DNA of 64,000 nucleotides, taken from positions 864,001 through 928,000 of the forward strand of contig CAVXRD010000002.1 in NCBI GenBank assembly GCA_963764165.1, in the 5' to 3' direction. The stretch comes from an uncultured Verrucomicrobiae bacterium. GTDB taxonomy: Bacteria; Verrucomicrobiota; Verrucomicrobiia; Limisphaerales; Palsa-1400. Positions 3 through 64,000 of the stretch are shown piece after piece (the stretch's first letter is position 1; the number at the start of each line of letters is the position of its first letter). A model generated the notes under the pieces. It saw only the letters and a program-made list of their open reading frames with translations, made no database searches and was not told the origin of the DNA. A program made the translations under genes and the position numbers.

Positions 3-2342
3 CGGCTGAACGCGGGCGCGGCACCTAAGACCGCAATCGTAGATTTAAAAACACTCAATACCGCGTTTCGTCGGGCAGAGGCTTTCGGAACCATCCTAAA
101 AAATCCGGTCGCCGCGATCCGTCCTCCAAAAGACGAAAGTTCCGAGCGGGATGTATTCACACATGAAGAGGTTCAAAAGCTCATCGCGGCTGCGCCGTCG
201 CTGGATTGGGAGACATTGATTCTCCTGGGGTATTTCGTCGGCGCGCGGCTGCGAGATTGCGTCCAGATGAAATGGGATAATGTGTTCCCTGAGCAAGGTG
301 TGATCATCTACAACCAGCAAAAGACGGGTAAAAAAGTGATTGTGCCGATGCACCACGAAATCATCAGGCATATCGAATACAAGATCCAATTCGGGACAAC
401 TGGTTACCTGTGTCCGAAATTGGCGGAGAAAGGGCCTGGAGGTAAACACGGATTGTCCGAGGGGTTTAAGCGTATAGTGGTTAAGGCGGGCCTGGACCTA
501 ATGGTCATCCAAGGAAAGGGCTCGCGGAAATTTTGCCGACGGACATTTCACTCGCTCCGTCACAGTTTCAATTCAATATTGGCCAACGCTGGGGTTTCGG
601 ATGAAGTCCGGATGAAATTGACCGGGCACAAGTCAAAGGAAATGAATATCCGAACGCACCAGAGGTTAATGGAGTCTACGCGCCTCAATTTTACGGTTTT
701 CTTGGAAGGAAAGCCAATTGACGAAGATGCGGTAGCTCTTTTTGACCAGCGCCGTATCGAGAGCGGAGAACGAATCCCATTGGGAAGGCACACGGTCACC
801 ATTCGGCACCCGAAAGCGGATGCCTTTTCTACGAATTTAGTTGTCTGGTATGGAGCGCAGAACTTGGGCGCTGTCAGTTTGAAACGAAGCATGGGAGCCC
901 TCGCCATCACTGCAAATCCACGGGCCGGATTGATCACGATTCAGGGACCGGAGTTTTCAACCAAACTCACTAATTCCGCCGGGATGACGCTAAATGTCCC
1001 CACAGACCATTACACGGTCGAGGCGTCCTATGCCCACTGGCAACAAGCGGAAGAAACCACTGTTGAACCCGCGCATACGGGTGCCTGCGCATTTGCTCCG
1101 CGCCTTGGAGCGATGCAACTGGCGTGTGGTCAGCCAGAGGCGTCATTCCAATTATTCAAGGCCGACGGGCAGTTGCTGGAAGCTGGGAATTTGCCTGCGC
1201 TGCTCGTCGAAGTCCCGGAAGGCAACTACCAACTTATCAGTTGGCATCACAAGCATAAGAAAGATCAGACAGTGGCCGTGACGGCAGCGACAACCAATAG
1301 CATGGAGATCGAATTCGTGTATGGGGCCGCCCGATTGGAAACGACCCCATCGGGCGCAACCGTCCTCACTGATGGTCACCAATGGGGCGTAACGCCAATG
1401 CTTTTTTCAGAGCTGACCACCGGGCGGTGGCATTTTGAACTGCAATTGTCCGGCTATTCGCCGGTGGATGCCGTGGTGGACGTCGCCGCTCGGGAAACGA
1501 ACACATTCGTGACAAATCTGGTGAGCATCAATTACGTCCCGGCCATGAATGCTGCCCGGCAATATCTTTCGGCGGGCGATTATGACAAAGCCTTCAGGGC
1601 TGCGGCCGAAGCCTTGGAAGTGAAACCGAACGACCCCGAAGCGATGACGCTCCAAAAAGAGGCGACTGGCAGACGCCATATCCGGCAGGCTGAAGCATTG
1701 GGCAAACGCGGCGATTACATCGGCGCGGATAAGGAATTGGAAGCGGCGCTCGAATCATTGCCGGACAACGATGAGGTGAAACAGCTACTGGCGGATTTCA
1801 AGACGCGGGAACGTGGACAACTGGAACAGTTACAACAGGAACGGCGCGAACGCGGTCAAAAATTGTTCGACACTATTTTGTCTCGATTCAAGGATGCAGA
1901 ATTATTTGACAGTCATGAAATCAAGACCACAAGGCCGCTCAACGAAGTGCAAACGGCAATTCTCAGTGCGCTGAAAATCCGCCCGGAGTTTCGTGTTTTG
2001 AAGTCAAGGTCGAGCGTTGCTGAGACATTCGAAATCAGTGCCGTCCAAGAACTGACCGGAGCGCTCGCCACGAGCGCCGGGCGCCGGCAATGCGTAATTG
2101 TGATGGCTCAAACGCGAGATGATGAAACGCAAATCCTTTTCAAAGTTCTGGAATTCAAAGCTCATCACAGCGTTGGGACCAAAGGGCTGTTGAATTTGAC
2201 CGATAATGTCACGTTCATTCCTGTCCATCCGTCGCGGATTCCTGATTTCACCGACAAGCTGAAATCGCAACTCGAGGAGGGAACGAAAATGGTGACGGAT
2301 CGGATTCAACAAGCAATCGGGGGTGGTTCGGAGAAGAAATAG
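3..2342 (+). CDS. Tyrosine recombinase catalytic domain (5' end outside window) fused in frame to a PEGA-like/TPR protein
   Basis: Frame is open from base 3 (KNPVAAIRPPK..ERDVFTHEEV). Motifs GARLRD, QQKTGK, FHSLRH and TGH are present, but no catalytic Tyr follows (EMNIRTH). Downstream: PEGA-like LETTPSGATVLTDG..GVTP and TPR-like helices. Confidence 0.75.
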   Translation, partial: RLNAGAAPKTAIVDLKTLNTAFRRAEAFGTILKNPVAAIRPPKDESSERDVFTHEEVQKLIAAAPSLDWETLILLGYFVGARLRDCVQMKWDNVFPEQGVIIYNQQKTGKKVIVPMHHEIIRHIEYKIQFGTTGYLCPKLAEKGPGGKHGLSEGFKRIVVKAGLDLMVIQGKGSRKFCRRTFHSLRHSFNSILANAGVSDEVRMKLTGHKSKEMNIRTHQRLMESTRLNFTVFLEGKPIDEDAVALFDQRRIESGERIPLGRHTVTIRHPKADAFSTNLVVWYGAQNLGAVSLKRSMGALAITANPRAGLITIQGPEFSTKLTNSAGMTLNVPTDHYTVEASYAHWQQAEETTVEPAHTGACAFAPRLGAMQLACGQPEASFQLFKADGQLLEAGNLPALLVEVPEGNYQLISWHHKHKKDQTVAVTAATTNSMEIEFVYGAARLETTPSGATVLTDGHQWGVTPMLFSELTTGRWHFELQLSGYSPVDAVVDVAARETNTFVTNLVSINYVPAMNAARQYLSAGDYDKAFRAAAEALEVKPNDPEAMTLQKEATGRRHIRQAEALGKRGDYIGADKELEAALESLPDNDEVKQLLADFKTRERGQLEQLQQERRERGQKLFDTILSRFKDAELFDSHEIKTTRPLNEVQTAILSALKIRPEFRVLKSRSSVAETFEISAVQELTGALATSAGRRQCVIVMAQTRDDETQILFKVLEFKAHHSVGTKGLLNLTDNVTFIPVHPSRIPDFTDKLKSQLEEGTKMVTDRIQQAIGGGSEKK

Positions 2343-5272: not shown

Positions 5273-5575
5273 TTACTCGAACGCGAAATCCTGCTGTCCG
5301 AGTGAAGCCTTGATCGCAACGACTTCAGCCTTTTTCGGCGGTTGCCCCTGCTCCAACGCGTCTGGCGACCATAGGCGCAGAGCCAACGGCAGCCACGGCG
5401 TGATGAAGTGGATATTCGACCAAGCGGCCCAAAACTCCAACGATAGAGAATTGCCGTGGATGACCCGCGTAGGAATGCCCCAAAGGGTCGTATTGATGAA
5501 CGCCATATCGCACGCGGTGCGATTGACATCAACTGCTGTGACGCGCAAGCGCGAGCGGGTTTCGTAAAAACGCCT
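5273..5575 (-). pseudogene. C-terminal remnant of an N6-adenine methyltransferase-like gene
   Basis: VTAVDVNRTACDMAFIN..VIHGNSLSLE resembles the SAM-binding half of small mobile-element methylases; N-terminus absent. Confidence 0.55.
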
Positions 5576-6052
5576 GAGGCAATCGACTACTGTGGGCATC
5601 AGCTAATTCGTTGGAATTCTCAGGACGAAGTCTATCTACTTAAAAAGAGTCAGATGAAAGGAGCGCATGCCGAATTGTTCAGTTATTGTCTTTATCAGAA
5701 GGTGCTCCAGCCCCTTTCTAGTCAGGGTCAGCTGGTGCCATTAATGCTCCTAGAATACCAATCTGTTAGCGGCACGGATTCTGAGCCTCATATTTTACTC
5801 GTCTTTTATAAACAAGATTACGATTTGAGGATTAAGGTCGTGTTTAAGAATCGGAGTTTTTTTGTTATTGTTGACTCAAGTTCATTCCAGGATCGGCCCG
5901 ATATTATTACCATTTTCTGTGATTCGCTCGGCTTCGCGCAAATTGAAACTCACCTTTCAAAAGTGATAACTCCACAAGCTATCGAAAGCTCGCTCCTGGA
6001 AATTGCTCAAACTCTGGCTAAGGCGTCCCAAAATGATTCGAGTGAAGCCTGA
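5570..6052 (+). pseudogene. C-terminal fragment of an AT-rich foreign gene (possibly a nuclease C-terminus)
   Basis: Abrupt composition change near 5570; no proper start; sits head-to-head with the methylase remnant. Confidence 0.4.
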
Positions 6053-7055: not shown

Positions 7056-7358
7056 TTATTCGTTCTCGAACGCGTCGATGGTTTCCCGAATCTCCAGTTC
7101 CGTGAGTGTCCAGCCTGCGCGTGGCAATGCGGCCACAACGGCGGACTTGAAATCTTCATGCCAGCCTATGGCGTCTGCCTCGTTGTCGAGACAATCTGCC
7201 AAGAGTGCCAGCGCCAATTGCGCCGAGCCGCTGCCGACATCGCCCCACTCAAACCCGGTCGGACTGTGATTCCACAAGTCCAGTCGGGAATTGAGTGGTT
7301 GGCCGCCAACGGTGACCACTACGCCCTGCTTCGTTCGTCGTCCTTCGTATCGCTTCAC
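7056..7358 (-). CDS. DUF6166-like protein
   Basis: NHSPTGFEWG..GSGSAQLALALL signature. Confidence 0.75.
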   Translation of the reverse strand: MKRYEGRRTKQGVVVTVGGQPLNSRLDLWNHSPTGFEWGDVGSGSAQLALALLADCLDNEADAIGWHEDFKSAVVAALPRAGWTLTELEIRETIDAFENE

Positions 7359-8401
7359 GCGGCACCCCCAAACAATTGGGACACCTCGTCTGCGGACAGG
7401 TGCTCGGGCTGGGTGCCGGGTTTCTCGAACTGATGCACCTTGACGAAACAGAATTTGGCGAGGCGGGCGGCGATGTCATCGCGCCCGGCCCGGCCAGCAT
7501 CGTCTTCGTCGAGCATGACAATGACCTGGCTTTGTCCATCGGTATGCTTGCGGATCAATTCTTCCTGGCCAGCGGACATGGTGCTGCCCATGAGGGCAAC
7601 GACCTTGCGGCAACCGTTCTGGTGAAGTTTGATGGCGTCAAAGAAGCCCTCGACGATCACCAGCGGTTTTTCGGGTGGTTCTTGGATGGCCCGGTTGAGG
7701 TTGAACAATTCCAGCCCCTTCCTGAAACCGGTGGGCAACTTGTATTTTGGCGTGCCGTCTGGCGGATTGCCCGGCCATCGCCCGGCATACGCCACGAGTT
7801 CACCTTTGACGTTGTTTATTGGGATGGCGATGCGCCCCACCATCAAACCTTTGTCGCCGGTGAAATAACCGAGTCCAAAGTCACCTATGGTCTGCTCGTT
7901 TATACTGCGTTCCGCAAAATGCGGATGCGCCCGATCCAGCTTGTCCAGCCGGAATCGAAGTGGCGGATTTGGCGTCGTGCTCTCCGGTGCCAGGACTGGC
8001 GCCGGTTTGGGGTGCCTCGCGACATTTGCTTCCGGCGGTTGGTCTGCTGCGGCCTCTGGCTCATCCTTTGAGCCGTTGGTCTTGACGTCATCAATGGGGA
8101 CACTGAACCACTCGCACGCTCTGAGTGCGGCGTCGTGAATCGAGATGTCCTCCTTTTTGGCGATGAAGTCCAGGGCGTTGCCGCCGTGTTTGCACTCACT
8201 GAAACAATTCCAGAGATTCTTCTCGGTATCGACGCGAAACTGCGTGGGATTGCTGCCGTGGTGGATGGGGCATGGGCCGCTGAGACGGCTGCCGCTGCGT
8301 TTGAATGTGCCAAGAACACCATAGTGTTCCAGCACCCGTTCCATTGTGACACGGGCGCGAATGGCCCGAAAATCGACAAATGGCTTTCTGCTCGTGGACA
8401 T
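7355..8401 (-). CDS. DnaG-like DNA primase (CHC2 zinc finger plus TOPRIM)
   Basis: CPIH..WNCFSEC zinc finger; VEGFFDA and LDEDDAG TOPRIM motifs. Confidence 0.9.
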   Translation of the reverse strand: MSTSRKPFVDFRAIRARVTMERVLEHYGVLGTFKRSGSRLSGPCPIHHGSNPTQFRVDTEKNLWNCFSECKHGGNALDFIAKKEDISIHDAALRACEWFSVPIDDVKTNGSKDEPEAAADQPPEANVARHPKPAPVLAPESTTPNPPLRFRLDKLDRAHPHFAERSINEQTIGDFGLGYFTGDKGLMVGRIAIPINNVKGELVAYAGRWPGNPPDGTPKYKLPTGFRKGLELFNLNRAIQEPPEKPLVIVEGFFDAIKLHQNGCRKVVALMGSTMSAGQEELIRKHTDGQSQVIVMLDEDDAGRAGRDDIAARLAKFCFVKVHQFEKPGTQPEHLSADEVSQLFGGAA

Positions 8402-8521: not shown

Positions 8522-9436
8522 TTACAAGAGAGTTTCTTTATTGGCGCGTCCAGACAGCCAAGGCAAGGTCAGGACATTCTCGGCAGATGAAAGCGAAGCG
8601 AAATCTGCGAAAAGAAACAGACCGTGTCCTTGTTCAAGTTGAGCACATGCCTCCACCATGTGCTGTCGCCGTTCGGCGGCGGTGGTCACTGTCAAAACAC
8701 GAAAGCGGTCAAAATCAAATAGGGAACGATGAAGGCCCTGGCGCCACGTCGCTTCGTAGGCGAGGAGTTTTCTGTAGAAACTGCTTTGATCCAAACCGTC
8801 TCGCGTGACCGGCATTGTGCCGCGATCCGCTTCAAGGAAAAACCAAGAGAGAATTTGGCGTCCGCTTTTATCAGTAATCTCCAATCCGAAAACCCTGTCA
8901 GGAATGACACCGCATTTGATGCCGCTGGCGACGTTCACTTTCCACTGGAATGGCTCACGCTGGCGTGCCGCGGCAATCGGGATCGCCGCGTCATCCGGCC
9001 TGATCAATTTTACACCCGCCTGATTTCGGCATGCGACTTCAAACGCAACCATTACGTCGGAAATCAACAAGGCATGATCGAGGAAAATTCGGCCAACGCG
9101 ACTCTTCTGCCCCCATTCGAGGCGGTGATAGGGAAATCCCAGTTCGCGTTTCAAAACCGCAGCACCTTTATTTCCGATCCCGTAAACCATCGGACGAGAA
9201 CCGTTCTGATAATAGTCGATTTGACACCGTGGCCGTTCCAGAAATCCATGGTGATAAAGCAGTTGAAGCCGCCGAAGAATCTGCTGCTTGCTGCCGGGAA
9301 GAAGCGCGCAAAGGTGGCCGGATCGTAAAAATCTGTGGCTGCTGACATGTTTGAGAATTTTCAAGTCGCGTTCGGTCAACCGAAAGCGGGAAATATTCTC
9401 TGATCTATTGAAACGGGGAAGTCGGACAGAACACAT
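8522..9436 (-). CDS. Replication-relaxation family protein
   Basis: LTERDLKIL N-terminal wHTH, LDHAL, IPDRVF, FLEADRGTM, FRVLTVT. Confidence 0.85.
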   Translation of the reverse strand: MCSVRLPRFNRSENISRFRLTERDLKILKHVSSHRFLRSGHLCALLPGSKQQILRRLQLLYHHGFLERPRCQIDYYQNGSRPMVYGIGNKGAAVLKRELGFPYHRLEWGQKSRVGRIFLDHALLISDVMVAFEVACRNQAGVKLIRPDDAAIPIAAARQREPFQWKVNVASGIKCGVIPDRVFGLEITDKSGRQILSWFFLEADRGTMPVTRDGLDQSSFYRKLLAYEATWRQGLHRSLFDFDRFRVLTVTTAAERRQHMVEACAQLEQGHGLFLFADFASLSSAENVLTLPWLSGRANKETLL

Positions 9437-10253: not shown

Positions 10254-10502
10254 CTATTCCCGCGCCTCGCGCTTCGCCTGTTTCAGCACGGCCTCAAAAT
10301 CAATGCCAATGGCATCGCAAATCCGCAACACGGTGTCCAGCGTCGGATTTCGTGTTTCCGTCTCAACATAACTGACCATTTGGCGCGACAATCCCGCCGC
10401 TGTCGCCACGGCTAATAGCGACAACCCGCGCTTGTTACGCTCTTCGCGCAAAATGCGCGCGACAGCGGCGCAGATCGCGCGACGAGCTTTTTCAGTTGCC
10501 AC
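10254..10502 (-). CDS. XRE-family HTH regulator
   Basis: LREERNKRGLSLLAVATAAGLSRQMVSYVETETRNPTLDT. Confidence 0.85.
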   Translation of the reverse strand: MATEKARRAICAAVARILREERNKRGLSLLAVATAAGLSRQMVSYVETETRNPTLDTVLRICDAIGIDFEAVLKQAKREARE

Positions 10503-10526
10503 TCCACATACCTAGCAGAAAAAAGG

Positions 10527-10555
10527 TTGACAGTGGAGGCCACTATAGTTACCTT
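10527..10555 (+). promoter_or_regulatory. Promoter divergent from the XRE gene, with an inverted repeat in the spacer
   Basis: TTGACA-17 nt-TACCTT; AGTGG-AGG-CCACT palindrome overlaps the spacer (candidate operator). Confidence 0.5.
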
Positions 10556-10561
10556 TCTGGC

Positions 10562-10801
10562 ATGTTTATGAAGCGAATTGGCCCGGACCCGCATGCGGAC
10601 GGCGCACGAACGTTTGCCTGTAACGGTTGCCCCGACATTCGGGAGCTCGAAGGTGGCGATTTCGCCATCATCGGAACCGACATCTGTGATTTGGCAGATC
10701 GGCTGCCGTCCTCTGCCAATTGCGGGCCCGACGAACGGATTATTCGAATCCCGCGCAAGACTCTTGTTCTGGCCAAGCCTGACATTCCGGACAGCTTGTA
10801 G
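10562..10801 (+). CDS. Small hypothetical protein
   Basis: MFMKRIGPDPH..CNGCPDI..DFAIIG; directly follows the promoter. Confidence 0.6.
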   Translation: MFMKRIGPDPHADGARTFACNGCPDIRELEGGDFAIIGTDICDLADRLPSSANCGPDERIIRIPRKTLVLAKPDIPDSL

Positions 10802-10841
10802 GTTTGGACCATTCGCGTCGGTGCGGTATAATCACCGGTAA

Positions 10842-11294
10842 ATGGGCATTCACGAGTGGTTTGGACAACATTGGTTCGATTTGTTTCAAACGGTGGCTGT
10901 TGTGGGCACTGTGATTTTCACGGGCCTTGCCCTACGAGACCAAACACGCGCCCAACGTCTGACGAACCTTCTCATCCTGACTGACAGCCATAGGGAAATC
11001 TGGAGCAACTTGTTCACATTTCCCGATTTGGCACGGATTCTTGAGCCGTCGCCTGACCTGGATAAAAATCCGACGAACGTAAGCGAACAGCGTTTTGTGG
11101 TGCTGGTAATTCAGCACGTCCATTCCACCTACCAATCGGTCAAGGAGGGCTTGGTGGTAAAGCCGGAATCGCTATATCGGGACGTGGCCTCGTTTTTCAA
11201 ACTTCCCATTCCAAATTTGGTTTGGAATCAATTCAAGCATTTGCAGGACGACGATTTTGTCGCTTTCGTGGATTCTTGCTTAGAATCGGAGTAA
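10842..11294 (+). CDS. Hypothetical protein with an N-terminal membrane helix
   Basis: Hydrophobic FQTVAVVGTVIFTGLAL; upstream TTGGAC-17-TATAAT. Confidence 0.7.
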   Translation: MGIHEWFGQHWFDLFQTVAVVGTVIFTGLALRDQTRAQRLTNLLILTDSHREIWSNLFTFPDLARILEPSPDLDKNPTNVSEQRFVVLVIQHVHSTYQSVKEGLVVKPESLYRDVASFFKLPIPNLVWNQFKHLQDDDFVAFVDSCLESE

Positions 11295-12591
11295 CGGACG
11301 GGGTCTCCATCCAGCGCCTTAGCCGCTGCTCGACCAATATCCTCGGGGTGGCAAACCTCTCTCGCGAACGGAGAACGTGGCGCTGGGGGTGGCGGCCATG
11401 ATTTGCCAACGGCTGCGACGTGGTTCCTCTGAAAGGCACCTTATCCTGACCGTCCTCCATAAGCTTCGCCAGCACCTCGTAGCGGTTCAGGTCAACGAAC
11501 TGCTTTGCAACAAACTCGTTCCCAAATTCTTTTTCCAAAACCGCCGCATCCGTCTGGCCAATCCGAAATGCAATCGTGCTGCCAACATTTCCAAAGACGG
11601 CCTGGCGGACAGGGAGGGTAAGCTGATCGACATACTGATGCGACAGAGTCAGGCAAAGACGATATTTCCTGGCTTCAGCCAGCAAAGAAGCGAACGCATC
11701 GGTGGTGAAGTTTTGAAATTCGTCGATGAAAAGAAAAAAATCGCGGCGTTCTGTTTCGGGTTGACTGGCGCGGGCCATTGCCGCGAGTTGGAATTGCGTA
11801 ACCAGAAGCGAACCAAGCAGATTGGATTTATCATGGCCCAACTTGCCTTTGGAGAGATTGGCGATGAACAAGCGCCTGTTGTCGGTGATGAATTGGAAAC
11901 TTACCTTGCGCTGCACCTGTCCCAAAATGTTGCGGATGACTGGACTCAAAAGAAGCTGGCCGAGTTTGTTTTGGATTGGCGCAATCGCTTCTCGCTGAAA
12001 CCGGGCATCGTAACCAGCATATTCCTTTTCCCAAAATTCGCGGATGAACGGGTCTTTAATTTGGCGGATTACCCATGCGCGGTAAGGGTCATCGGTGAGC
12101 AACCGATTGACGCCAAGCAGGGAAGTGTTTGGGCATTCCAAAAGCGCGGCAATCGAATTGTAAAGAATATACTCCATCCTTGGGCCCCATGAATCCCGCC
12201 AGATGCTTTTTAGAGCTCCAACAATGCCTGATGCAACCAGATGTCGTTCATCAGTCGGAACATTCGCCAATAGATTCAGTCCAATCGGAAAATCCAAGTC
12301 AGCGGGATTGAAATAAACCAGATGGTCCGAACGCGCAGCGGGGATGTGATTTAACAGTTCCTCTGCCATGTCGCCGTGGGGATCGATAAAACCAACACCA
12401 TGCCCGAGGGAAATGAGTTGAATAATCCAGTTCCGAAGCAGGGTCGTTTTGCCGGAACCTGTTTTTCCGACCACATAGACATGGTGCCGCAATTCGGGGA
12501 TTTGGATTCCGAATGGTATTGGCTGGCCCCAGCCGTCGCGGGAGCCGATGTTGATAGTGTTGTCATTCATGATCGCAGACTCAGCCGTCAC
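11233..12591 (-). CDS. Type IV coupling-protein-like / HerA-FtsK superfamily ATPase
   Basis: Walker A GKTGSGKT, IDPHGD, Walker B FIDEFQNF, EARKY, SHQY; alternative ATG at 12570. Confidence 0.85.
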   Translation of the reverse strand: MTAESAIMNDNTINIGSRDGWGQPIPFGIQIPELRHHVYVVGKTGSGKTTLLRNWIIQLISLGHGVGFIDPHGDMAEELLNHIPAARSDHLVYFNPADLDFPIGLNLLANVPTDERHLVASGIVGALKSIWRDSWGPRMEYILYNSIAALLECPNTSLLGVNRLLTDDPYRAWVIRQIKDPFIREFWEKEYAGYDARFQREAIAPIQNKLGQLLLSPVIRNILGQVQRKVSFQFITDNRRLFIANLSKGKLGHDKSNLLGSLLVTQFQLAAMARASQPETERRDFFLFIDEFQNFTTDAFASLLAEARKYRLCLTLSHQYVDQLTLPVRQAVFGNVGSTIAFRIGQTDAAVLEKEFGNEFVAKQFVDLNRYEVLAKLMEDGQDKVPFRGTTSQPLANHGRHPQRHVLRSRERFATPRILVEQRLRRWMETPSVTPILSKNPRKRQNRRPANA

Positions 12592-13390
12592 TCCCGGCCA
12601 TATCGAAAATTCCCCGTGTCAGTTGAACTTTCGACAAAGAAACGCCGCACCGGTGTCAGGCGTTTGAATGGCTGTTCCCGGACGGGAACCATTGGCAAAC
12701 GCTGTTGGGTGCGAGCCAACGGGGTAATGGCGGCTGAGTCTGAAACCCGAAGATACTCATTTTAGCACGGGAAGTTGGCGCGCTGTGCGCGGCTGCTGTG
12801 GATTGGCCGCGTGGCGGCGACACGGGTCAAAATCGGCGGGGCGCTTTTTCCAGGATGCAAAAGCGGAGGTTCGTTCCGCAGGAAACCGTCGTCTCGTGCT
12901 CCGCGTACTCACACGGAGTCGTTGGGCGAATTCGCCCGCGCTCGTGTGTCCGATAGGACTCTCTATGAACCCGTCCCCCCAACGTGTCGGCGGTTAAAGG
13001 ACGATAGGACTGGCGCGGCCGACTTCGCGCTTTTTGGTGAGAGACGACGGTTAGGAGGAACGAATCCCGATAGCCACCTGGAAAAAGCGCGAAGTCGGGC
13101 GTTAGCCGACGACACGTTGGGGAAGTCGTAAGGCCCCGTTGAGCCGTAAAACTCTCGTCGGCGCGATCCGCGCCCCTACATACCATGTATGTAGCCCCTC
13201 GTTCCCGGCACTCATCAAGGACAATACCGCATCGGCGCGATTGGTCATGGTGTAAACTAAATGGGCAGACCGCCGATGCCGGAATGTCAAGCAAAAGGAG
13301 TATTGATTGGAGCCATGTTCGCGCCCAGCGAACCGAAATAGGTGGAGCAAGCCGCGCGACGTGCGCAGCAAGTAACATCCGAATGGGTTA
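12575..13390 (+). other. Large, highly structured non-coding region (ncRNA or ssDNA origin/promoter)
   Basis: More than 10 hairpins and several 12-17-bp long-range complements; wobble pairs read as G-T on the + strand. Confidence 0.6.
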
Positions 13391-13393
13391 AAA

Positions 13394-14191
13394 CTACCCT
13401 GATTTCGGCTGCAACGGCAGCCTAACCGCAAACTTCTCGTCTCGACTCTGGCTTGCGAGGCGAGGTGCCATTTCGCGAAATACCGTTATGTCGCGGATTC
13501 TCTTTTGCCAAGGGTCGCGGTGTCGGAAAAGAACCTCATCCAATGACCCTCCTATCATCCCAACACGAGTTTTAGTGTGTTCGTATGAGCCTTTTCTGAC
13601 GCGGTATGCGATTAAGTCAGCCGCCTGAAGCGGGGTGCAGTCTTTGTCGTCAACAAAGGCCACTGATGAAAACCGAGGATGTTTGATTTTTTGTTTGTTA
13701 AAAACTTCTTTAAAGGACTTAATCCAGTCTGACTTGTTACTATCGCAAAAAAAAGACACCCCATCTGTGTTGCGGGGCCAGTGCAAACTGATTGTTTTTC
13801 CAACACTTTCAAAGAACGCCTCAAACAAAACCGGAAAAGGGTCATCCGGGTCGCCAGTTGCGACATAATCCTTTAAATTGAACATTGAACCGACCGGCAC
13901 TTGTTGCCCCGCTACGGCGGCAAGCTCAAATAGAAAAGTGTCGCGGCGCATTTCCCCCCAGTTGTAATAAGGGCTTTCTGGATCATGTTCGGAATCTCTA
14001 AGTGAGAAAAATTCCCGACAGTGAAAGTGGGAAACGCCATATTTTTTTAACACCGACTCCCAATGCCAACGAAATTTTACCCATTCTTCTACATCGCCGA
14101 TGTATCCTCCGAAAGTCGGAGCTTCCGAGCCACGGAGTCTTCCCGACCGATCATGCGTCCCGGATTCGTCTGCATAAACAACAAGGTTCAC
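13394..14191 (-). CDS. Second DUF3800 family protein
   Basis: VYADESG, FFCD, PLQAADLIAY; GTG start at 14191 chosen. Confidence 0.8.
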   Translation of the reverse strand: MNLVVYADESGTHDRSGRLRGSEAPTFGGYIGDVEEWVKFRWHWESVLKKYGVSHFHCREFFSLRDSEHDPESPYYNWGEMRRDTFLFELAAVAGQQVPVGSMFNLKDYVATGDPDDPFPVLFEAFFESVGKTISLHWPRNTDGVSFFCDSNKSDWIKSFKEVFNKQKIKHPRFSSVAFVDDKDCTPLQAADLIAYRVRKGSYEHTKTRVGMIGGSLDEVLFRHRDPWQKRIRDITVFREMAPRLASQSRDEKFAVRLPLQPKSG

Positions 14192-17126: not shown

Positions 17127-17140
17127 GCTCGGCCCACTTC

Positions 17141-17259
17141 CAGGGCAGACGCATCTTAATTATTGTAATTCTTTAAAAATCAACGAGCGCCAAGCTCGTT
17201 GACAGGCAGGGACGCCTCGGCGAGGCGTCCCCACCTTTTAATAAGATGCGTCTGCCCTG
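17141..17259. mobile_element. 119-bp MITE with ISAs1-like ends, carrying a REP hairpin
   Basis: Perfect 18-bp TIR CAGGGCAGACGCATCTTA; 10-bp flanking direct repeats GGCCCACTTC/GGCTCACTTC. Confidence 0.8.
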
Positions 17260-17402
17260 GGCTCACTTCAAATTCAGGTTGCAAAGCGGCGTAACTCTGT
17301 CAACTTGCAGAGCGCTGGCATGCAACCCTGCGTGAGCAGCAGAGCCTTCCCCCAAGCTGGCGCTTTTTCGGCAACCATGGAATTCCCCCAAATTCACGAG
17401 AA

Positions 17403-48554: not shown

Positions 48555-48666
48555 GGTAGGGCGAGGCTCTGCCGAGCCGTCCCATTATTCCCATGCCTCG
48601 CATGAAACTGGGAGTTATGGGACTAATGGGAGTAATGGGAAGGCTCGGCGGGAGCCTCGCCCTACC
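48555..48666. repeat. REPIN-like inverted GTAG-REP doublet
   Basis: GGTAGGGCGAGGCTCTGCCGAGCC ... GGCTCGGCGGGAGCCTCGCCCTACC. Confidence 0.8.
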
Positions 48667-50270: not shown

Positions 50271-50365
50271 GCGCGGCTGTGTCGAAGACCAGCCGCAGCA
50301 ACGTGGAATTGACCGACGCGCCTGGAGGGTCAACGCGCTGCGGCTGGTCTTCGACACAGCCGCGC
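50271..50365. repeat. Long inverted repeat (REP-like)
   Basis: Perfect 29-bp arms GCGCGGCTGTGTCGAAGACCAGCCGCAGC. Confidence 0.85.
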
Positions 50366-52617: not shown

Positions 52618-52784
52618 AAGCGCCGTAGGCGCGGCACCGTTGCAGAAATGATGCCAAAAGATTTTCAAGCTCCGTCAGGAGCGGCGCCTGCCCCGCACGA
52701 GTGCTTGCCTCCAGTGCCGCTCCTGACGGAGCTCGAGAATGTTTTCGGATGCTTTTCTACAACGGTGCCGCGCCTACGGCGCTT
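52618..52784. repeat. Nested inverted repeats (REPIN-like)
   Basis: 31-bp outer arms with one mismatch; 18-bp inner arms AGCTCCGTCAGGAGCGGC. Confidence 0.85.
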
Positions 52785-61015: not shown

Positions 61016-61131
61016 ATCTGGCGGCGTCCTACTCTCGCAGAAGCTATACAACTACTACCATCGGCAAGACTGTGTTTGACGGCCGTGTTCGGGATGGGAA
61101 CGGGTCGGACCACAGCTTCATAGCCACCAAA
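61016..61131 (-). rRNA. rrf: 5S rRNA
   Basis: Reverse complement contains CCGTTCCCATCCCGAACACGG, GCCGATGGTAGT and GAGAGTAGGACGCCGCCAG. Confidence 0.95.
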
Positions 61132-61249
61132 AAATTGTCAAAAGATCGTGCTGGAAACGATTCCAGGAATATTCACTGAAAACTACACACAGAACAAAGG
61201 ACACAGCAATCCAATTCGCGAGTTGAAATCACTTATTCTCCGAAGAGAA

Positions 61250-64000
<2,751 letters not shown>

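Follow-up and report, generated by a model that had tools for sequence, protein, structure and literature searches.

Genetic context of the flagged region

The window, by which we mean the whole 64-kb stretch of DNA that was analysed, encodes a VirD4/TrwB-like ATPase on its minus strand, and the stretch flagged by a first-pass annotation of this DNA sits 5′ of that gene (Table 1). Searching the ATPase against NCBIfam returned TraD-like matches, all under the cut-off. Downstream of the ATPase, also on the minus strand, are genes for a Replic_Relax relaxase and a CHC2-Toprim primase, together with radC and ardC; the plus strand is indeed the template for all five genes, as first annotated. An XRE protein is encoded at 10254–10502. 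A PF13814 relaxase and a VirD4-like coupling protein are thus both encoded (Pfam), the combination by which a MOBC integrative mobilisable element is recognised. PF13814 is classed as MobC in Table 1 of PMC5357655, and class 8 of the streptococcal IMEs in that paper consists of VirD4, MobC and a serine integrase. We found two further paralogous elements in the same genome besides that of the window, and located serine recombinases: two flank or sit on the C1 paralogue, and one was seen on C4. A scan of 52 of the 118 ORFs from seven regions detected no mating-pore family.

Table 1. Positions of genes, structural elements and the predicted promoter in the window
Feature	Position	Strand	Details and basis
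VirD4/TrwB-like ATPase	11233–12570	−	445 aa from AUG; Pfam TrwB_AAD_bind, DUF87
VirD4/TrwB-like ATPase, longer form	11233–12591	−	452 aa counting from GTG at 12591
Replic_Relax (MOBC-type) relaxase	8522–9436	−	Pfam PF13814; winged helix and nuclease-like domain (model, fold searches)
CHC2-Toprim (DnaG-like) primase of the element	7355–8401	−	Domain searches
Module B, structured unit and probable 5′ leader of the ATPase gene	12564–12751	−	80/83 loci, covariation, strand tests
P1 closing helix, 5′ arm	12723–12751	−	Bulged A at 12725, near inner end; first four bases of the arm pair with the UG of the AUG and the two bases after it
P1 closing helix, 3′ arm	12564–12594	−	GGAG at −24, in-frame GTG at 12591, AUG at 12570–12568
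P2 (7 bp, 12721–12715 with 12696–12690) and P3 (3 bp), internal loop between	12690–12721	−	Covariation
C/A-rich loop of P3	12710–12703	−	Loop composition
P4 variable insert	12636–12689	−	Missing from shortest copies; holds most of the small hairpins of the first-pass annotation
P5 hairpin	12603–12634	−	A/C-rich loop ending CGG; usual but dispensable
Extended −10 box TGCTAAAAT	12759–12767	−	7 nt before module B
Module A, predicted ssDNA origin, separate unit	12841–13194	+	Loop type, wobble-poor stems, DNA z-scores
Module A parts: rod; alternative partner; terminal palindrome	12977–13122; 12841–12851; 13176–13194	+	GnTAG mini-hairpin loops

The structural model of the relaxase has an N-terminal winged helix, resembling that described for TraX (PMC12857230), and a wide fold search with this model was dominated by winged-helix matches. 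With Foldseek, the best match was BstEII (E value 0.003), with MunI and HamA scoring weaker; all of these matches are weak. The relaxase sequence had no match in the PDB. A search with a model of the element found it in 4 of 40 relatives and in 0 of 150 genomes from across the phylum, so its distribution appears to be patchy. Among the plasmids of PLSDB we found no DNA match, and relatives of the ATPase there were less than 40% identical.

Conservation and covariation of module B

We assembled a homologue set of 83 loci, consisting of the best 80 of 365 ATPase-encoding genome stretches (labelled mostly Verrucomicrobia), the two paralogues and the window. Across these loci, the non-coding DNA that stretches from about position 13195 as far as the AUG contains two conserved blocks, which we call modules A and B. 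The gene-proximal block, module B, corresponds to the flagged stretch; the unit runs from 12751 to 12564 on the minus strand, and not from 12575 to 12830 as first delimited. The two modules usually adjoin, and some loci have 1.2–6 kb of genes, on either strand, between them. Where other genes separate the modules, module B keeps its place at the AUG; in two loci, L064 and L115, it is the relaxase gene that intervenes. Module B was found before the ATPase gene in 80 of the 83 loci (79 by profile and one more by covariance model), and the remaining three loci end without upstream DNA. Each element carries one full copy, located at the ATPase AUG, and no copy was found before ardC or radC, either in the 83 loci or in the window's own genome. 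We also collected an independent set using the module A pattern alone, which gave 120 matches, 80 of them with flanks. Module B was present in 40 of the 47 loci in this set having at least 1 kb downstream, and the ATPase followed it in 38 of these 40. Viral contigs yielded 0 matches to the module A or module B pattern.

Module B is represented by 124 distinct natural copies; the fold spans 95–190 nt, and a minimal form has 93 nt. Each copy is closed by a helix of about 28 bp, P1, in which the first bases of the unit pair with the 24 bases before the AUG and with the UG-AA of the first codons. Across 72 aligned copies, the 34 pairs of the structure were 89.6% paired and 22 of them had two-sided changes. 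These values were matched in 0 of 500 shuffles, a control that ignores kinship, and slid controls were 28–50% paired. Parsimony on a 72-leaf ATPase tree counted 88 changes to other Watson-Crick pairs. All seven pairs of P2 had two-sided change, with 94.6% of cells paired, and in P3 69.9% of cells were paired. The loop of P3 contained 420 C, 287 A, 66 T and 56 G, as counted with a parse in which the P3 register is one off in many copies. The insert between P2 and the 3′ arm varies from 1 to 97 nt, and the P5 motif, a pattern picked after viewing the alignment, was present in 81 of the 121 insert-bearing copies. The ATPase coding region showed little extra structure; only 3 of its 109 four-fold sites reached at least 80%.

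The long stem that the first-pass annotation had placed at the gene start (12576–12590 with 12728–12742) is real and covaries across 72 homologues. Its 15 bp were kept on the plus strand in 44 of 71 homologues and on the minus strand in 51, and it is one of 11 inverted repeats in the window with arms of at least 15 nt, at most one mismatch and a span of up to 230 nt. The annotation was right that the structure belongs with the start of the coupling-protein gene, and across homologues it is conserved. The arms of the smaller hairpins were likewise all present where they had been placed; as hairpins, these small plus-strand structures are mostly not conserved. GTTGA/TCGAC was kept in 6 of 71 homologues and CTGTTGG/CCAACGG in 11 of 71, and both compete with the conserved P5 or P2/P3 helices. 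AAACGCC/GGCGTTT (kept in 6 of 71) and AATGG/CCATT (11 of 71) have their first arms within one subgroup's variable insert, and GTTCCC/GGGAAC was kept in 2 of 71. Two other listed pairs touch neighbouring features: TGAGT/ACTCA shares positions with both the long stem and the promoter, and GCGCGGCT/GGCCGCGT falls beyond the promoter on its upstream side and outside module B.

Folding strand, promoter and the neighbouring module A

On the minus, coding strand, the consensus fold of module B has an energy of −33.7 kcal/mol, compared with −13.9 kcal/mol on the plus, template strand, and the RNA z-score was better on the minus strand in 17 of 20 copies. Changes in inner P1 and P2, read on the minus strand, comprised 66 G.U versus 18 A.C, and the majority-wobble columns on this strand were three G.U and one A.C. 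In the outer half of P1, 38 A.C versus 21 G.U changes were counted, which is the wobble pattern of the plus strand and speaks against an RNA reading. A G.U bias identifies the strand, not whether the molecule is RNA or DNA, and PMC5737381 urges like caution on telling RNA from ssDNA motifs. With DNA parameters, the strands tie across 20 copies (z −4.3 vs −4.4). The window's own copy folds better on the plus strand as DNA (z −6.4 vs −3.4) and on the minus strand as RNA (z −7.0 vs −3.7); positions 12560–12850 fold moderately better than shuffles on both strands, with z values of −2.7 (plus) and −2.6 (minus) as DNA and −1.6 (plus) and −3.4 (minus) as RNA. The template-strand folding first reported therefore holds for the window's copy treated as DNA, whereas the family consensus favours the minus strand. 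The G-T wobbles cited for the plus strand did not generalise: the T-G pair at 12588:12730 is a private change and is C-G in 70 of 72 copies. We found no enrichment of RNA-type tetraloops in module B.

Upstream of module B, an extended −10 box places the predicted transcription start near 12752, about 7 nt past the box. The pattern TGnTAnnnT occurs within 45 nt upstream of module B in 40 of 73 loci, mostly 7–10 nt away; among control windows, it occurs in 1 of 292 from coding DNA and 1 of 441 from non-coding DNA. A relaxed −10 pattern was present in 53 of 73 loci versus 11 of 201 controls. These promoter calls are consensus matches only. In several loci with genes inserted between the modules, no promoter adjoins module B.

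The first-pass annotation had suggested a Frpo-type single-stranded promoter, acting on the plus strand as both template and transferred strand and driving early genes. Like the Frpo and ssi promoters of F and ColIb-P9, module B is a large stem-loop domain 5′ of a gene in a conjugative-type element; in addition, the window's copy as DNA folds better on the plus strand, that strand is the template for the ATPase, relaxase, primase, radC and ardC genes, and module A does fold on it. In the known Frpo, which lies in the leading region, a stem of the incoming strand reconstitutes the −10 and −35 boxes (PMC9849209). Module B fails in the three features that can be tested, namely strand, boxes in the stem and gene context. 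Its fold favours the minus, coding strand across the family; no sigma-70 −35/−10 pair occurs within 12400–13400, and the sole promoter box is an ordinary double-stranded one outside the stem; and the single copy per element always stands at the ATPase, ahead of a coupling protein rather than anti-defence genes and never ahead of ardC or radC. Moreover, if the plus strand were transferred from a nick near 13194, module B and the ATPase gene would enter the recipient last, which is the wrong order for an early promoter. We consider a promoter of this type highly improbable.

Module A has the loop signature of DNA, cGNNAg, and stems that are almost wobble-free, with 1366 Watson-Crick cells and 3 wobble cells in its shared stems. 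Of its 260 tetraloops, 96 are GNNA on the plus strand (81 closed by C-G, 8 GNRA), against 38 of 433 for shuffled sequences; in the metagenome set the count was 162 of 390. DNA z-scores favoured the plus strand in 13 of 16 cases. Clear three-way changes were seen in single loci, and the swap control for the distal pairing was weak, with the native combination better in 37 and worse in 25 of 83 loci. GNNA-type mini-hairpins, which have a much higher stability in DNA than in RNA, are a mark of the DnaG priming sites of G4, St-1 and alpha3 (PMC13037366). Module A resembles these DnaG-dependent ssDNA origins in having GCGNNAGC mini-hairpins, which in the phages lie at priming sites, and GCGTTAGC of St-1 and alpha3 (PMC13037366) also occurs at 13099–13106 on the plus strand. 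It differs from the phage origins in being larger and in having two alternative pairings. A ssDNA origin had been among the first suggestions for the flagged stretch; a structure in this intergenic region does fold on the plus strand, located at 12841–13194 and so outside that stretch. The original observation is thus partly confirmed, and its interpretation is partly supported, for the neighbouring module.

With a probable ssDNA origin adjoining it, module B may itself be folded ssDNA, of either strand, with a role in DNA processing (recognition by the relaxase or coupling protein, or termination) as a part of the transfer origin that lies apart from the rest. Consistent with this, most pairs of P1 are Watson-Crick and the helix can form on either strand (the 15-bp stem is kept in 44 of 71 homologues on plus and in 51 on minus), the DNA z-scores are tied, the outer part of P1 has a plus-strand wobble bias, and TraX binds 70–120 bp from its own nick site (PMC12857230). 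However, module B goes with the AUG, not with module A, across up to 6 kb. It does not have the DNA mini-hairpin loops of module A (C-G-closed GNNA loops make up 3 of 45 tetraloops versus 81 of 260), and it is wobble-rich, against the 3 wobble cells of module A. Folded ssDNA would also leave unexplained both the start-codon register and the promoter 7 nt upstream, and we regard it as unlikely. The two adjoining modules, one predicted to act as ssDNA on the plus strand and the other as RNA on the minus strand, can be told apart by their loops, their wobbles and the partners they travel with.

A further suggestion was that the flagged stretch forms the 5′ part of a large non-coding RNA, which would join both modules in a single molecule of about 630 nt. 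Positions 12560–13320 do give a strong RNA fold (z −5.5 minus, −4.7 plus), and the modules are mostly adjacent. Nevertheless, the 1.2–6 kb inserts with genes on both strands split module A from module B, a promoter is located between the two, no conserved promoter lies upstream of module A, and module A has its non-GNRA GNNA loops on the opposite strand. One joint RNA is therefore the kind of explanation to which we would give hardly any weight.

Start-codon pairing and the predicted lock

A start codon stands directly behind the helix in 110 of the 124 distinct copies and is lacking in 14. In these 110 copies, the U of the AUG is paired by G.U or A-U in 103 and the G by C-G in 108, and the two bases after the AUG are paired in 107 and 95, respectively. 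The A of the AUG is predicted to be bulged, with a mean unpaired probability of 0.86, compared with 0.20 and 0.10 at the −1 and +2 positions. Opening −20 to +12 would cost a median of 24.6 kcal/mol (25 copies) versus 12.0 kcal/mol at 60 other starts in the same genome, these control starts being the first ATGs of long ORFs and unverified. The cost falls to 13.5 kcal/mol when the 5′ arm is removed. For the narrower interval of −11 to +12, the medians are 15.5 and 9.0 kcal/mol. The words GGAG, GAGG and AGGA occur at −16 to −5 in 0 of 124 copies, and a paired GGAG is found at about −24 in 110.

Our preferred explanation, to which we assign a probability of roughly 0.6, is that module B is a 5′ mRNA leader that buries the ATPase start codon and keeps translation off by default. 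Two results point to a start-burying leader: the structure computed to covary on the mRNA strand pairs the initiation region, and a consensus match to a promoter lies upstream, from which the leader could be transcribed. RNA polymerase would begin some 7 nt beyond the extended −10 box, the leader would close once the AUG is transcribed, and a ribosome could not load on the closed form. The lock may be tuned: its outer half, next to the AUG, is rich in mismatches, and its inner half is conserved. Because the inner helix and loops are highly conserved in sequence, release would most likely come from a protein that binds them, or from cleavage of the helix. The ATPase gene is directly followed by those for the relaxase and primase in compact elements, so that the leader would head the entire mobilisation operon. 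An island that is mobilisable but has no mating pore of its own has to match the timing of its transfer proteins to a helper, and a conserved RNA lock, if this reading is right, would be a translation-level control point for MOBC elements. The 124 natural copies, the 93-nt minimal form and the fixed AUG register make such a lock directly testable.

Rather than blocking translation, an mRNA leader of this shape might aid expression by protecting the 5′ end and positioning ribosomes, with the weak outer half melting and the inner helix placing ribosomes on the AUG without a normally spaced Shine-Dalgarno sequence. The distribution of Shine-Dalgarno words described above would fit, as would the mismatches in outer P1 and a host with little Shine-Dalgarno signal (91 versus 76 of 857, a crude count). 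The cost of opening even −11 to +12 argues against such a role, as does the UG-AA pairing, kept in 95–108 of 110 copies per position; we think it decidedly unlikely.

As to how a translational lock might open, we give a very small chance to a switch in which the RNA is cut once, at the bulged A of the AUG, either through self-cleavage or by a nuclease that is provided when a helper is present. The cut mRNA would become leaderless and begin at the AUG, with only four weak pairs remaining, and the coupling ATPase would be made only if transfer is possible, that is, with a helper conjugation system present. P3 with its C/A-rich loop could, in such a switch, fold back on the invariant CAG/CUG pairs of P1.

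Other features that a regulatory leader might have were searched for. A leader peptide in the frame F-G-F-Q-x-Q-P-P-L-P was rejected: an in-frame upstream start exists in only 39 of 73 loci and at scattered places, early stops occur in 4, and the synonymous share was 18 of 49 versus 12–17 of about 50 in other frames. A consensus scan for an antisense promoter over the leader found opposite-strand −10-like boxes without a positional cluster. Candidate alternative partners for the 5′ arm between −700 and +1400 were scattered, and in the three copies inspected none paired as strongly as the native arm. Between the P5 loop and module A, pairing hardly differed for own and swapped combinations (5.9 vs 5.7 nt), and no covariation was seen. 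In metatranscriptomes, two runs contained low-depth contigs of relatives. Run X18 gave one 229-nt contig over 12566–12791, promoter included, that is 90–95% alike and may be DNA, and contigs of run X4 span both modules. As these contigs also cover the promoter and module A, they cannot show expression of the leader.

RNA leaders that bury a start are familiar from plasmid R1 repA/tap, ColIb-P9 repZ/repY, the read-through protection of IS10 and IS50, and the MS2 replicase operator, in which a bulged A lies beside the AUG. Module B is predicted to share with these leaders a stem that covers either the start codon or the ribosome-binding region of a gene central to mobility. It is unlike the rep-gene and IS leaders in having no conserved leader peptide and no sign of an antisense promoter, and unlike the MS2 operator in that the bulged base is the A of the AUG itself. 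Its helix, which is also much longer than in any of these, begins at the predicted 5′ end and encloses a multi-stem domain, and the gene under predicted control is a conjugative coupling ATPase.

Rfam searches with the window, eight homologous loci and three short stretches found no family at the gathering threshold. The best Rfam match for module B, rdlD, reached 18.5 bits against a cut-off of 50 (E value 0.12), occurred in locus L052 and was absent from L049, and was discarded. Verrucomicrobia also have a large motif known as MISL. This name is absent from the main text of PMC5737381 and from the papers that a search for it listed. A literature search found no description of such a MOBC leader, with the possibly relevant supplement of PMC5737381 (224 motifs) outside its scope, and the portions of the IME class 8 and MOBC descriptions that were covered contained no mention of a structured leader. 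Module B is therefore best read as a structured mRNA leader without a match in Rfam or in the literature searched, and as a predicted lock on the start codon of the coupling ATPase in MOBC islands of Verrucomicrobia. The element behind it resembles IME class 8 (PMC5357655), MOBC CloDF13 and pAD1 in combining a VirD4-like ATPase with a PF13814 relaxase. It differs from them in adding a DnaG-like primase, radC and ardC, and its paralogues differ in carrying a second, larger TraD-like ATPase.

Module A as a candidate single-stranded DNA origin

Module A, the unit neighbouring the structured leader (module B) of the VirD4-like ATPase gene, is likely an ssDNA origin on the + strand, for priming or transfer. 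Wobbles are nearly absent from its stems, and on the + strand 96 of 260 tetraloops were GNNA, with only 8 GNRA, against 38 of 433 in shuffled sequence. GnTAG motifs occur in module A at 12.6 per kb, two of its pairings compete, and a palindrome marks its sharp end. An inverted repeat of 23 nt, 87% complementary and spaced by 2.4 kb, encloses the ATPase gene together with modules A and B.

Cargo between the modules and variants of the ATPase start

The interval that separates module A from module B is a hotspot for cargo genes, as seen in three loci homologous to the ATPase region (L059, L010 and L049). The window also holds a three-gene cassette, composed of an XRE helix-turn-helix gene and ORFs of 101 and 150 aa that match no known family; this cassette was found again in many elements at varying positions, including the A-B gap. 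At the ATPase start, reading by eye found that the A of the AUG is missing from the copies in L031, L032, L033, L049 and L053, and that this loss brings a TTG within the 3' arm into frame.

Other genes and related elements

Near the start of the window, PEGA and TPR domains share one frame with the C-terminal part of a tyrosine-integrase, possibly a fusion at the end of a decayed element. A Pfam scan of the 108-aa ORF gave no match; a + strand ORF overlaps its start, and paralogous elements carry an N6-methylase gene at the corresponding position. Among the further elements of the source genome, the one on contig C1 ends at a ChlI/comM-like gene and carries two serine recombinases along with a type I restriction system and a second, larger TraD-like ATPase.

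Coordinates of features in the window, homologous loci (L) and other contigs of the source genome (C)
Feature	Position	Remark
Module A	window 12841-13194	+ strand
CBASS pair (nucleotidyltransferase, TIR-STING)	L059:4376-7003	between modules A and B
Double-GTPase system	L010:1772-7605	between modules A and B
Astacin and ATP-grasp genes	L049:4574-7758	between modules A and B
XRE cassette	window 10254-11294	
23-nt inverted repeat	window 10807-10829 / 13224-13246	
Further long inverted repeats	window 17140-17260, 48555-48666, 50271-50365, 52618-52784	15-31 nt
PEGA/TPR/integrase frame	window 216-2342	
108-aa ORF	window 5273-5599	within region 5273-6052
5S and 23S rRNA genes	window 61016-64000	minus strand
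Group II intron domain fragment	L025:4758-4890	downstream of ATPase
tRNA gene	L027:542-614	7.4 kb upstream
Further elements (n=2)	C1:1540287-1574984; C4:753800-779900	C1: L219-L220
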